Assembly (NCBI GenBank): GCA_964016885.1
Contig: OZ024763.1
Location: 6,572,001-6,636,000, forward strand
DNA: 64,000 nucleotides
Direction of reading: 5' to 3'
Source of the DNA: Eledone cirrhosa
Taxonomy: Eukaryota
Shown: piece after piece, positions 20,311 through 63,909 of the stretch
Layout of the letters: every line of letters begins with the position of its first letter
How positions within the stretch are numbered: position 1 is the first letter of the stretch
Notes under the pieces: generated by a model
What the model was told of the DNA's origin: nothing
Seen by the model: the letters and a program-made list of their open reading frames with translations, nothing else
Database searches by the model: none
Program-made: the position numbers and the translations under genes

Positions 20311-20435
20311 AGGAACCAGTAAGACCCCGACGGCTGAGCTCAAGCCGTTTCGACGGCTAATTCTGGACTGGAATTCAGTCCAGAATTAGCCGTCGAAACG
20401 GCTTGAGCTCAGCTGTCGGGGTCTTACTGGTTCCT
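20311..20435. repeat. Near-perfect 125-bp palindrome between (TA)n tracts, carrying HHR 3' halves
   Basis: AGGAACCAGTAAGACCCCGAC...GTCGGGGTCTTACTGGTTCCT with one mismatch and a 5-nt loop. Each arm reads GAAA CGGC-TTGAGCTCA-GC(C/T)G TC GGGG. Confidence 0.9.
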
Positions 20436-20689
20436 ATATATATATATATATATATATATATATTCTAGTATAGCACCCATCCACCATCTGAGTGAGTTTC
20501 TTGGTCAGTGTCTAAGTCTCAGACCCGTACAGCAGCCCAGACTCCACTACAGCAACGAAGAGACAGATCTTCAGGTCCAACTTCCACACCAATCTCAAGC
20601 TGTGGCACGCCGCGCAGACTTTGCTCCACCTCTCAACCACATCATCTTCCGTATTCCCAATCTTTGCTCTCAGAGCTGTACGGGAGCCT

Positions 20690-20980
20690 CTCTAAAGTCA
20701 GCTTGAAAGTGACACAGAGGAGACTGAGGTTAGCTGGACACAGAGGAGACTGAGGTTAGCTGGACACGCTCACCGACATCCAGAGTTGACATTGCACTCA
20801 GTGCTCCTGTGGGAACCCCTGCATGGACACACTGGAAGAGGAAGACCGAGGATGACATATGTTGATGCCCTAAGGACAGACACTGGTCTCTGGGAGGCCC
20901 GGGACATGGCAGCGATAATGAGGGACAGAGACCGCTTAAGAGAACTCGTCCATGAATCTCAGGAATTTTACCCGCCCTAG
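20690..20980 (+). mobile_element. RTE-like LINE 3' fragment
   Basis: RRLRLAGH..VLLWEPLHGHTGRGRPRMTYVDAL..DTG is a typical RTE C-terminus. Local duplication at about 20715-20770. Confidence 0.7.
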
Positions 20981-22389
20981 ACACACACATATATATATAT
21001 ATATATATATATATATATATATATATTTATATATATATATTTATATATATATATTTATATATATATATATATATATTTATATATATATATTTATATATAT
21101 ATATTTATATATATATATATATATATTTATATATATATATTTATATATATATATATATATATATATATATATATATATATATATATATATATATATATAT
21201 AATTTCAGCGAAATCGTATTTCGGCTGTGGTCAAAAACAAAGCGAAAAGCGATTTTCGAGATATGCGGCAAGCGCTCAATGGACTAAAAAGACCAGAGCA
21301 ATTAATATATATATATATATATATATATATATATATATATATATATACACAAACACACACACACACACACACACACACACACACACACACACACACACAC
21401 ACACGCACATACATATAATACTCTTTTACCTGTTCCAGCCATCCGGCTGAGGCCATGATACAAACATATGCATAAACACACACGCGCACACACACACACA
21501 CAAGCACACACACACACACACACACACACACACACATATATATGTATACAATATATATATACCCCTATCTACAATAGATAGACGTAGTAGATTAATGGGT
21601 ATATGGGATGAAGAGAAAGATAAGAAGCAAGTAGTGAGAGAATGTGATGGGGGGGGGGAGGTGACTAGATGGTCTAATAGAACAGTGAACTATACCCAAG
21701 AGATAGATAGATAGATAGTGGGGGAGGGGGGGGGGGAAGAGGATAGATAGATAGATAGATAGAGGGGTAGGAGGAAGATAGATAGTGGGGTAGGATGGTG
21801 AGGGGGGAGGATGCCGAAGAAGGTCTCAGTGAAACTTAAGTCAACAATAAACAAGGAGACACTAATGCTTTTTGTAGTCATTAAAATAGCTTTGGTATTA
21901 AAGTAGTGCTTCAACGTCAGCACACACACACACACACACACATAGATGTGTGTGTGTATATATATATACACACACACATATATATATGTATGTATATATA
22001 TGTGTGCGTATATATATGTATATATATATATATGTCTGTATATATACATCTATATGTATATATGTGTGTATATATGTCTCTCTCTCTCTCTCTCTCTCTC
22101 TCTCTCTCTCTCTCTCTCTCTCTCTCTCTTTCTCTCTCTCTCTCTCTCTCTCTCTCTCTCTCTCTCTCTCTCTCTCTATATATATATATAGGTGTGTGGA
22201 AGTGTATGTATGAGATGTATTTAAGTTCTCAGAATTCAATCCAATCACGAAAAAAGTGTGTGTATGTAAGTGTGTACGTGTGTATATATATATGTATGTG
22301 AGTATGTATATATATGCTTTTTAGGCGGTTACAACAAGGTTCACACACTATCTCACATACACACAGAACACAGAGAACACTGAAAGTAC

Positions 22390-23215
22390 TCAATATCTGA
22401 AGAATTAGAGTATGTAAGAACTTAGTGGATGTTTTTTGAAAGTGATCTATTTGAGATGATAAGGAAAGCAATATTTCCTTCTCACATGAACACCTTCTCA
22501 AGAACCTTTAAAAAACGTAGAATAACTCTTTGAAACTAGCAGAAAATACTTGTTTACTCTGACAAGACAAGAGATCTTTTTGAAGCTGACATATTCACAC
22601 ATTACAAGCTTATTTCAAACAACTTTACAAACAGATAGATATAACCCAAACCTTACGCTAATACCTATCACGCAGTACATTAAAAGGCAGAAACATTAAC
22701 CAACAGATCCAGATAGATGATAGAACGGTGTGTTTAGCTTCATGTAAACCTCATCTTACGTCTAAAGATCATAAAGATAACTTTCTAGATGACATCTGTT
22801 GTGAATACATACTATTAAAGGTAGATGCTTTTCCTTCAGACTTAAATAAATCCGTTTATTTACTGTGGTCTATCAAATTCCCTTTGGCACAATAAAATAA
22901 CTCCTTCCTTGTTGTGCCATTTGTCATGGAATGGACATGGAGTTAAGTTTGGTACAAATATGTTAGGGTTAAATAAAGGACGAAGGAGAGTTATAGTTTC
23001 TTCTTTTGATGTGAGAATATAATTATTTAGATTGTTGATGTAGTTGTAGCTGACTATCAAAGATCTCTTGTTTTAGATCTTGTGTATATCTGTAGAAGAG
23101 TTTAGAAACGGTTTTGCAATATTGGCTGCCACACCCAAGCTAAAGGGAGGACCAAACCTAGCTAATGTTACGTTTCTCTGCTTCTTATGGATTTGTGAGA
23201 CGCTGCCGAATGGCA
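22390..23215 (-). mobile_element. Heavily decayed non-LTR retrotransposon RT remnant (CR1/L2/Jockey-like)
   Basis: Only scattered motif echoes (REFD like KAFD, TDV like ADD, Y.LI..LEY-like), with many stops. Confidence 0.35.
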
Positions 23216-23247
23216 TTTACAGTAGCTCCTTGTGGAAACTAATGTAT

Positions 23248-23760
23248 TTTAAACCCTTTCATTACCATATTTCCATCGAAAGGCACAGCCTATGTCTTTA
23301 ACCCTTTCATTACCATATTTCTGCTGATAGACACTGTCTATGTCTTTAACCCCTTCATTGCCATATTTCTGTTGAAAGACACTGTCTATGTCTTTAACCC
23401 CTTCATTACCATATTTCTGTTGAAAGACACTGTCTATGTCTTTAACCCTTTCATTACCATATTTCTGTTGAAAGACACTGTCTATGTCTTTAACCCTTTC
23501 ATTACCATATTTCTGTTGAAAGACACTGTCTATGTCTTTAACCCCTTCATTACCATATTTCTGTTGAAAGACACTGTCTATGTCTTTAACCCTTTCATTA
23601 CCATATTTCTGTTGAAAGACACTGTCTATGTCTTTAACCCCTTCATTTCCATATTTCTGTTGAAAGACACTGTCTATGTCTTTAACCCCTTCATTTCCAT
23701 ATTTCTGTTGAAAGACACTGTCTATGGTTTTCAAATAATATTGAAAATAGCCAAGAATCT
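23248..23760 (+). repeat. 48-bp MITE-end satellite, array 2
   Basis: About 10 copies with the array-specific variant CTGTTGAAAGAC, followed by GGTTTTCAAATAATATTGAAAATA. Confidence 0.9.
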
Positions 23761-61961: not shown

Positions 61962-62428
61962 TGGTTTCTACTCTAGGCCAGCAATTTGGGGGAGGGTGTG
62001 GAAGGAGAAAGTTGACCCAAGTGAATTACTGGTACTTTATTTTATCGACCCCGTAAGGGGGGAAGGTAAAGGTAACCTTGGCGGGATTTGAACTCAGAAC
62101 GTAAAGGGCCGTAACTCTATGCTGTAAACATGGCATCTGACGTCTACCAATTCTGGCAATCAACCGCCTTAATTGTAAAGATTAACCATATATATATATA
62201 TATATATATATATATATATAGAGAGAGAGAGAGAGAGAGAGAGAGAGTGTGTGTGTGTCTGCCGTGCTGAGACCCCAGTACACTGCTGGTACTTTATTTT
62301 ATCGACCTCTGTAAGGATGAAGAGCAAAGATAACTTCGGTGGGACTTGAACTCAGAATATAAAGGGACGTAACTCTATGCTGTGAAGCATGTTGTCCGGC
62401 GCTCTACCGATGCTGCCAATCTACCGCC
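61962..62428 (-). mobile_element. Two SINE family A copies (61962-62170, 62272-62428)
   Basis: Core and tRNA-like head match the family. Confidence 0.8.
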
Positions 62429-62707
62429 CTAATAATAATAGTAAAATAACAACAGCAACCACAACAACAACAACAATAACAACAACCAGCAACAATAACA
62501 ACAACCAGCAACAATAACAACAAACAGCAACAATAACAACAACAACAATATCAACAACTAGCAACAACAACAATAACAGTGTATACAAAAACACAATAAC
62601 AGTCCACAACAGAGCCAGACCTTCACCAGCGGGGGCCCGAGACTATATGAAACCTGAGGCCCTTCTCTAAAGAAATTTATAATTAGTAGTTTTTATATTA
62701 ATATGAA

Positions 62708-62975
62708 ATTGGCAGAGGCGTTAGAGCGTCAGATAGAATGTTTTGTGGTATAGGTTCACTTCACGGATCTTTCTATTCTCGGTGTTCAAATCCCGCTCAG
62801 GTCAACTCTGCTTTTCATCAAGACATGGGTATCACCCCGAGGCCGTGGTATGTGATATTTACCCAATATATAACCACATTGGTTGAACTGAGTTCAAATC
62901 TTGCCGAGGTTAACTTTGCTTTTCATCCTTTCGAGGTTGATAAAAAAAAGAACCAGTCTAGTACTGGGGTCGTTT
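62708..62975 (+). mobile_element. Two partial SINE family A copies
   Basis: TGGCAGAGGCGTTAG..GTTCAAATCC and GAGTTCAAATCTTGCCGAGGTTAAC. Confidence 0.7.
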
Positions 62976-63548
62976 CTTCCTCTCTCTAGAAGAAATCTGC
63001 TGTACTCAGGCCTGCAGAGGGATCGGCTCCGTCAGGCTTAAAATGTCCAAGAAACGCTGTATGTCAATACGCTGTCCCTACGACTATATCAAGAGTTATG
63101 GGACCATATATCACAGCAGTGGTATAAGACAGGGGTATCACCCTGAGGCTGGGATAAGTGATATTTACCCAAGATATGACAGCAGTGGTGTAAGACAGAG
63201 GTATTACCGGAGGCCGTGGTAGACTTATCCAAGATACCACAGCAGTGGTATAGAACCTAGGACCTAGTGATAACCAAGCTAACCACGTAACTAAACTGTG
63301 TCCCCCGAATACAGCTGCTGTATCAACAGCTGAATTTTCGATTTGCACCTCGATAATTAGATTTACATAACGATAATTAACTCGGCAATTACATTGTAAT
63401 TACTTTGATAATTTAAATTAATGAACAGTACATATATCAGACAATAAATACTGTTAGTTATATTAACTGTTTTGGTAGCAAACTATGTGATAACATCTCC
63501 AGTTCCATGATACAACTCCCTGGTTCTCTTTCTCTATATATATGATAA

Positions 63549-63731
63549 TAATTGTTTCTACTTTAGGCACAAGGCCAGCAATTACCCCAGTGTATTACTG
63601 GTACTTTATTTTATCGACCCTGTAAGGATGAAAGGCAAAGTTAACCTCGGCGGGATTTGAACTCAGATCATAAAGGGCCGTAACTCTATGCTGCAAAGCA
63701 TGGCGTCCGACCCTCTACCGATACTGTCAAT
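63549..63731 (-). mobile_element. SINE family A, full length
   Basis: Close reverse complement of 12644-12841. Confidence 0.85.
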
Positions 63732-63734
63732 ATA

Positions 63735-63909
63735 ATAATACAAGGACGATTTGTTATGTCCTCCCTCATTACGTTTATTGATTGGTATATATATATATTC
63801 CAGAGTCAGGCCAGATCGATACAGATCGAACCTTGAGCTGATCAATAGCGAAACGCCTGTCACCAATCAATAAACGTAATGAAGGCATAACAAATCGTCC
63901 TTGTATTAT
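63735..63909. repeat. Inverted repeat (63735-63786 / 63862-63909) enclosing an HHR 3' half of the 24887 family
   Basis: Spacer ATTCCAGAGTCA..AGATCG..GAGCTGA..GAAA CGCCTG TC. The right arm begins immediately after the GTC triplet. Confidence 0.8.

Follow-up and report, generated by a model that had tools for sequence, protein, structure and literature searches.

A 64,000-nucleotide (nt) stretch of the genome (3.0 Gb) of Eledone cirrhosa (contig OZ024763.1, positions 6,572,001-6,636,000; hereafter the window) contains short inverted repeats with hammerhead ribozyme sequences in or beside them, and these repeats were identified as head-to-head insertions of Penelope-like elements, here called stubs. 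We consider it likely that the stubs represent two independent complementary DNAs (cDNAs) fused head to head, with the axis of symmetry at the RNA start. As judged from the positions of arm ends and from sequence motifs, the axis most likely marks the predicted RNA start of the respective family and not a stem of the ribozyme. A first-pass annotation of the window had proposed instead that nascent cDNA snaps back on ribozyme hairpins and primes its own second strand, which would give the ribozyme stems a structural role in integration; the stub data suggest no such role.

Simple repeats make up 36% of the window, and its 41 kb of non-simple sequence contain 12 local inverted repeats, as compared to none in each of 10 block shuffles. 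All ten inverted repeats noted earlier are present, and nine of them fall into seven hammerhead-bearing families. Exact-motif patterns taken from the window repeats gave 53,660 genome-wide matches for family A (repeats at 20311 and 53949), 9,837 for family B (45996 and 58241), 2,331 for family C (60537), 1,108 for family D (57811), 13,116 for family E (47526), 125 for family F (47779), and 6,194 for family H (27872). The tenth repeat, at 63735 (family G), gave 2 matches and its family could not be rebuilt. One short palindromic family A pattern occurs at 8,455 sites in the genome and its control at none, and 18 close head-to-head pairs account for 36 of the first 100 family A matches. The sample studied comprised 412 loci with a total length of about 1 Mb, which came almost entirely from contig C1 and were mostly taken in the list order of exact-motif matches. 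About 25 AT-rich false family C pairs, 5 cross-family pairs and the duplicate loci L277 and L278 were removed before counting, as was a duplicated segment (L101-L104, L106, L111, L114, L314, L321, L324, and L326) that had been mistaken for native family B. As part of a larger repeated unit, the family B stub of this segment is found again with identical flanks in many widely separated parts of C1.

The hammerheads were rebuilt from un-rearranged genome copies by reading core motifs and stems in native copies. Native copies of families A-F and H display the core or a known variant of it, GAAA, NUH, and the three stems of a type I hammerhead. The cores are UUGAGAA in A, UUGAAAA in E, CUGANGA in B, C, and H, and CCGAAGA in D, while that of F has one extra base; a U3-A8 core variant of the type seen in A and E has been described for Penelope-like hammerheads (PMC4209133). 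In family B, stem III pairs are retained in 65-67 of 67 copies, two stem I pairs are changed on both sides, and 64 of the 67 have T-T as the closing pair of stem II. No hammerhead was found among 150 of 366 Rfam rows for the window, nor in two further Rfam searches, and weak Rfam matches at 57855, 47808, 58244, and 60570 are to microRNA models. In an indirect test of self-cleavage, 15 arm ends coincided with the predicted cut site as compared to 10.6 expected (p=0.12). A second pile-up of ends at the cut site was accordingly rejected, as it was not significant and several such ends are 23-nt deletions between direct repeats. This deletion recurs in family A arms at L020, L088, and L169, where it runs between direct copies of an 8-mer, one in stem II and the other in stem III.

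From the sample, 288 same-family head-to-head insertions were obtained, as compared to 5 tail-to-tail pairs. In 255 of them one arm ends at a fixed proximal outer end (P) and the other carries an extra tail of 55-95 nt that reaches a second fixed end, the distal site; the rest comprise 7 events with both arms ending at P, 4 with both at the distal site, and 22 with a partly matched end. This two-end architecture is common to all sampled families. Twelve of the 288 events could not be placed in refinement and were left out; among 246 refined events of all families with one arm at P and the other at the distal site, 196 have (TA)n on both outer flanks, in which any target-site duplication would be masked. 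The native sequence that follows P starts with TAT or a near variant in six families, and the sequence after the distal site is likewise TAT-like in A, the sole family of which a tandem copy was sampled. The centres of the stubs vary by locus and their outer ends are unequal, unlike one fixed palindromic unit copied whole, as in a miniature inverted-repeat transposable element (MITE). These results support the earlier view that hammerhead-bearing Penelope-like elements left these repeats in (TA)n as inverted insertions with truncated 5' ends, and speak against chance or assembly noise. At L035, L043, L068, L197, and L209, stubs of one or several families lie side by side in one (TA)n tract, which indicates that such tracts undergo repeated hits and may lengthen with every insertion.

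Positions of arm ends are given relative to the first base after the predicted ribozyme cut. In family A, both inner ends fall within stem II or its loop in 81 of 90 palindromes, and of 262 inner ends 177 lie within the 16 nt from -48 to -33, whereas 5 lie in the 60 nt upstream. By part of stem II, the 3' strand contains 22 ends, the 5' half of the loop contains 2, and the 5' strand contains none of the 262. The claim that the ribozyme stems set the axis was not supported: among the 107 palindromes of other families that span the predicted cut site, both inner ends lie in stem II in 3, and at least one arm keeps the core in 101. The inner ends of these families also pile up, with shares of 82/118 in B, 25/44 in E, and 18/48 in C. 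The pile-ups have a sharp upstream edge and are located at about -40 in A, -42 in B, -112 in C, -71 in E, and -103 in H, at distances from P between about 57 nt (in A) and about 250 nt (in H). Their modes lie 30 nt (A), 32-33 nt (B), 32-34 nt (C), and 30-31 nt (E) behind a TATA-like box that matches perfectly in B and C and with one mismatch in A and E, and they coincide with initiator-like letters. For the TATA-less family H, the expectation that ends would lie 0-25 nt before a YY1-like motif was written down beforehand, after pair spacings and one junction were known; 13 of 36 ends were found at or just before this motif and none in stem II. At least 6 of 42 unpaired family A arms start at -41 to -45. 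Tailed and tail-less arms end at an identical base despite starts that are 55-95 nt apart, and the distance from P differs between families; a fixed cDNA length was therefore rejected as what sets the axis.

A further trace of an RNA start may be seen in the letter that precedes the arms. G stands before arms that start at the initiator A in 15 of 23 cases, as compared to 39 of 139 other ends (p=0.001), and the letter before the initiator A in the first 100 of 4,315 genome matches was G in 52, C in 42, and A in 6, with 33% G expected from partner-arm letters. Such an excess of G would arise if the enzyme also copied the RNA cap, for which no literature source was found. The family A pile-up would fall in loop II because the predicted promoter, consisting of the TATA-like box and the initiator, lies there, and the axis would cut through the ribozyme only where a family has its promoter within the ribozyme, as is predicted for A. 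These findings suggest that a promoter can sit inside a hammerhead.

The common stop of the arms could also be explained, with twin priming retained, by a strong structure, a bound protein or a splice acceptor, which we regard as unlikely. The family A stop does fall within the 3' strand of a hairpin inside the extended stem II, beside a pyrimidine-rich AG, an AG is also present at the E stop, families F and D misfit the TATA rule, and the intron of Penelope from D. virilis is reported to end at the ribozyme (PMC4209133). Against it stand the constant distance of 30-34 nt to a TATA-like box in four unrelated families and the excess of G at the initiator A; moreover, fillers at the junctions lack shared upstream-exon sequence, ends are spread across the AG, and there is no AG at the C stop.

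With the axis placed at a predicted RNA start, two independent cDNAs still have to be distinguished from a single cDNA that copied itself. One such explanation is that long symmetric palindromes arise where the RNA has its 5' end, by snap-back or by capping of a hairpin, that the endonuclease trims one arm at P, and that later deletions at the centre give the lopsided and non-overlapping forms; it appears about as improbable as a structural stop. Many events are nearly symmetric (in A, 40 of 122 within 3 nt), and both arms nearly always share their source: in 40 of 44 testable family A events the arms lie within 1 difference of each other, as compared to 23% of random pairs. Palindrome centres are unstable, which would likewise favour later deletion. 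If lopsided events had been derived from symmetric ones by later deletion they should be more diverged, but tail divergence in lopsided and symmetric family A events (33 and 54, respectively) was 0.52 and 0.46 per 36 nt (p=0.73), and 20 of 59 undiverged events are lopsided. Furthermore, the longer arm of lopsided events still stops at the same pile-up, and the arms of the stub at 53949 belong to different subfamilies (8 differences in a diagnostic stretch), indicating that two templates were used.

The snap-back of one cDNA on a ribozyme hairpin, with the stems setting the axis, is less probable still. Self-priming has been proposed for comparable elements (PMC3846280), and the pivots of the family A palindromes in stem II or its loop, as well as the pivot of 60537 on a self-complementary 4-mer in stem II, agree with it. 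Yet stem II pivots are nearly confined to family A, in which the 5' strand of stem II contains no ends and fold-back products with the full loop of that stem were not encountered, and unpaired arms stop at the same place as paired ones. The geometry is also unfavourable, as a strict fit was obtained for 22 of 246 refined events and a loose fit for 67. A self-primed second arm must lie within the first, so the 32 of 246 events in which the tailed arm consists of tail only and the arms share nothing cannot be produced by self-copying; in addition, the tail-less arm, which is the wrong one, is more than 10 nt longer in 83 of the 246 and the tailed arm in 32. Junction microhomology exceeds the blunt-join null (means of 2.5 and 0.7 nt, respectively, for 71 events in A, and of 1.8 and 0.8 nt for 18 events in E), and an inverted copy of 9-18 nt of the adjoining arm is present as templated filler at about 5-7 of 131 family A junctions, which indicates that brief snap-back synthesis occurs during joining. 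The 7 events with two tail-less arms, including 20311, could be true fold-backs. Snap-back as the maker of the second arm is not upheld by these data, which display the features of twin or dual priming, namely two inverted cDNAs with independent inner ends, each anchored at its own end of the target.

Least probable of all is that the palindromes are chimeras of assembly or amplification, or that a few MITE-like units were copied many times. Perfect palindromic junctions are not listed in short raw reads and the (TA)n flanks resemble TA target sites, but the junctions vary by locus, the arms bear age-like mismatches, one short pattern alone recurs at thousands of genome sites, inverted joints and fixed ends are present in the reads of two further samples and the contigs of a third, and the full-length element at L131 has the same plan.

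These reads were raw reduced-representation reads from two other samples (22,323 and 22,740) that were aligned on the native family A repeat. Loose read ends followed by (AT)n were found at P in 3,354 and 2,886 reads and at the distal site in 8,666 and 9,441 reads. Opposite-strand joints connect the stretch from -45 to -28 with tail-side positions that lie at the cut site or beyond it, several of them in both runs and in the contigs of the third sample, and contig depth rises about twentyfold between -70 and -20. The expectation that the palindromes would be seen in raw reads was thus borne out for both fixed ends and for opposite-strand joints but not for perfect palindromes. Piles of read ends at 4856, 4845, and 4797 in the two runs coincide with AATT, are probably enzyme cuts, and were not used.

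According to the interpretation that we prefer, in which two cDNAs are primed separately, the element protein would cut both strands of a (TA)n tract, and each cut end would prime reverse transcription, one at the distal site and the other at P, on one RNA or on two; the TAT-like letters at both start sites could pair with a TA end. Since a promoter-started transcript would have its 5' end only 60-250 nt away from these sites, both cDNAs would usually run off the template or stop short of its end, and host end-joining would then fuse the cDNA ends bluntly, by microhomology of 1-7 nt, or with a short templated filler. The long arms at L131 and L132 would come from read-through templates. In family A, RNA started at the promoter would lack the catalytic core whereas read-through RNA would have it. 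A more far-reaching proposal, to which we would give an even chance, is that double-ended priming at two fixed internal sites is the normal insertion route of Penelope-like elements and builds every insertion from two cDNAs, that the stubs are run-off copies of the 5' end of the mRNA and so map the transcription start of each family to the base, and that the family A promoter in loop II acts as a switch between an uncuttable message and a cuttable precursor.

Several points weigh against twin priming at an RNA start. The seven events with two tail-less arms and the four with two tailed arms depart from the expected product, and the data cannot tell one RNA from two RNAs of one locus. No joint with both sides at the axis is listed in the raw reads of the two samples, and the perfect palindromes, including those of the ten window loci, rest on the assembly. 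Anchoring on exact motifs and sampling almost only contig C1 favoured young copies, and 7-8 of 40 family H stretches and 2 family B stretches were chosen for close pairs. The TATA, initiator, and YY1 readings at the pile-ups rely on resemblance to consensus motifs, the extra G is partly explained by partner-arm letters, and C is confounded in this regard. The mode of family F lies 41-45 nt after a weak TATA-like site, family D is too sparse (16 ends), and the inner ends of family B are blurred because of the few native upstream copies in the sample. Finally, Penelope from D. virilis has been described as having a TATA-less internal promoter (PMC2377424).

The identity of the elements was judged from their reading frames. 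L131 carries a complete family A element, with an 830-nt inverted tailed arm, a partial tandem, and a tail-less 3' end, and contains a single frame of 786 codons from stop to stop. The frame comprises a reverse transcriptase and, at the C terminus, a GIY-YIG-like domain, with the motifs RWR (104), DKT (184), CNCPDRSIC (639), CNLC (737), and CKH (765) as well as YRDD and YIGLT. Its Atlas neighbours (0.96-0.99) are animal proteins, some in RVT_1 and GIY-YIG clusters. Pfam gave no match for the whole frame and only E=0.07 for a fragment, and a sequence search of solved structures (PDB) with the frame gave no match. By its motifs, family A is a Hydra-type endonuclease-bearing Penelope-like element. 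The Hydra clade is described as having an RWK-like motif, DKT, a CxCX5C linker, CxxC, and CxH, and as inserting into (TA)n (PMC8557442); family A has RWR in the first position and shares the remaining motifs, the GIY-YIG-like domain, the hammerhead, and the target. Unlike the members described there, its unit is about 3.1 kb long and not generally below 3 kb, its tail about 80 nt and not 30-40 nt, and it is present as tens of thousands of stubs with a variant core and a long loop II that contains a predicted promoter. The family A tail and the beginning of the long frame are in the same reading frame, and a short stretch is common to the otherwise unlike tails of A and B (for example 53862-53945 and 56100-56181), possibly as part of a protein-binding or priming signal. 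Same-sense Penelope-like frame pieces follow the tail in families D (L204, L213, and L230) and C (L191), and one precedes the ribozyme in family F (L263). One unclear case each was found in B and E and none in H, so that C, D, and F are tied to Penelope-like elements by frame pieces, while B, E, and H are assigned to them mainly by architecture.

The architecture itself is already known. An inverted pseudo-long terminal repeat (pseudo-LTR), a one-sided tail, and palindromic junctions were described by Arkhipova et al. (2013; PMC3846280), who read them as self-priming on an antisense template, and the one-sided tail is also described in PMC8557442, where the origin of the inverted repeats and one-sided tails of Penelope-like elements is an open question. 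The stubs resemble the elements of PMC3846280 in their head-to-head arms, the tail on one arm, the palindromic junctions, and a TATA box and initiator in the repeat, but the present counts, unlike the reading given there, call for two independent cDNAs and tie the axis to a predicted RNA start. For Penelope-like hammerheads, Cervera and de la Pena (2014; PMC4209133) likewise reported type I cores, a palindromic short stem III, and the U3-A8 variant, and opposite-strand ribozyme pairs 100-700 bp apart; they mapped neither junctions nor a promoter within the ribozyme. The Poseidon protein of the anole cuts and extends both strands in vitro, with two internal starts that bound the tail, prefers AT-rich DNA, and inserts without need of ribozyme cleavage (Frangieh et al., 2024; PMC11167929). 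There, no homology of the start site to the target is reported and inverted structures are left unexplained, whereas here the native start sites are TAT-like and inverted products are mapped in a genome. In twin or dual priming of LINE-1 (PMC2837659, PMC11702581), the second target strand similarly primes a second cDNA and the cDNAs are linked through end-joining with short microhomology, but priming there is at poly(A) and a variable internal site with arms that barely overlap. The stubs use two fixed sites near the 5' end of the RNA, and overlapping arms and hairpins are usual.

The literature searches made here, which did not extend to some older papers, revealed no twin priming for Penelope-like elements, no mapping of junctions to RNA starts, and no promoter in a hammerhead loop; the proposed twin-priming, RNA-start reading of Penelope-like junctions was thus not found in print. 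As natural reaction products, the stubs number in the hundreds in this small sample and in the many thousands genome-wide; they argue against self-priming and for priming on both strands and so would tie the in vitro result of 2024 to genome structure. Base-level predictions follow for RNA starts and for which arm comes from which strand. Short DNA hairpins, well over 8,000 in number, also lie in fragile (TA)n tracts of this genome, and annotation may take them for microRNA precursors or MITEs.

Most window palindromes run on into a family-specific tail on one side only (for example 60445-60536, 53862-53945, and 28266-28320). The first-pass annotation had found hammerhead sequence in all ten repeats, and hammerhead-like sequence lies at or beside each of them, although that of 27872 is in the unpaired spacer and not in the arms. 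It had also placed the axis of 20311, 53949, 45996, and 60537 in or at stem II with loss of a CUGANGA core and that of 58241 in stem I. The family A stub at 20309..20437 is of the rare type with both arms ending at P, with inner ends at -42 and -45 in loop II, at the predicted RNA start. That at 53862..54050 has a tailed left and a tail-less right arm and its axis in loop II. In both, the axis is indeed in the stem II loop, near the 3' strand, but the core that was lost is UUGAGAA. The family C stub at 60445..60682 is a perfect 146-nt palindrome with a one-sided tail; as stated, it pivots in stem II, where its arms overlap by 4 nt (GTAC) in the 3' strand, and outside family A the window has no other clear pivot of this kind. 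For the family B stub at 45948..46070 a stem II axis is roughly true, as the left arm, with an internally deleted tail, ends in stem II and the right arm starts just past GAAA. At 58238..58377 two complete family B hammerheads lie head to head, with inner ends at -45 and -39, at the predicted RNA start, and the pivot is located in the 5' strand of stem I as had been described.

In the repeats at 27872, 47526, 47779, and 57811, at least one arm retains the whole core and extends 15-60 nt upstream of it. The family H insertion at 27872..28320 consists of a minus-strand arm (27872-28130), which contains the whole minimal hammerhead (about 28036-28075) and reaches the YY1-like motif, and a plus-strand arm (28131-28320), which begins 25 nt downstream of the cut site and bears the tail; the tail-less arm is 120 nt longer and so is not a self-copy. 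In the family E stub at 47456..47757, the tailed left arm contains the whole hammerhead (UUGAAAA) and ends at -73, the predicted RNA start, and the right arm starts at -14, with a 3-nt overlap. The family F stub at 47781..47971 has a decayed core in both arms and an axis about 30 nt upstream of the core, and the family D stub at 57811..58135 has the CCGAAGA core in both arms, inner ends at -78 and -54, and a right-hand tail. A further family B insertion, at 55001..55103, was absent from the earlier description and joins a full hammerhead arm to an inverted tail-only arm in a non-palindromic way. In the unassigned family G repeat at 63730..63915, the right arm contains the 3' half of a hammerhead (GAAA, stem III, and GUC), the sole recognisable part of the ribozyme, and the inverted left arm starts from the putative cut site, with a short (TA)n between them.

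A larger inverted repeat at 17744..19656 has arms of about 620-750 nt that are 84% alike and a spacer with a decayed Penelope-like frame piece on the minus strand (18514-18981; 32% identity to the family A frame over 157 amino acids, E=5e-16), and is probably a product of the same process in another family. Another decayed Penelope-like frame piece is present on the plus strand at 22435-22784, with an inverted tail-like fragment beside it (22383-22417), and further hammerhead-like cores of unsampled families are located at 17217-17310, 49099, 32949, 49218, 6696, and 30268. A ribozyme-less palindrome of 230 nt (56230-56459) consists of two partial copies of an abundant repeat resembling short interspersed nuclear elements (SINE-like) around an AT-rich centre, and copies of this repeat at 105, 41035, 56360, and 63547 have the same end adjoining TA, which raises the question of whether the palindrome represents two insertions in one tract or mobilisation by Penelope-like proteins. 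On the minus strand, a single-exon frame of 384 codons (1711-2865) resembles a rhodopsin-type G-protein-coupled receptor, and a tRNA-like match (8369-8440) exceeds the Rfam gathering score (54 bits). One 48-bp satellite forms three arrays (7153-7905, 23252-23726, and 38915-39637), and a different 49-bp array is located at 9514-11214.

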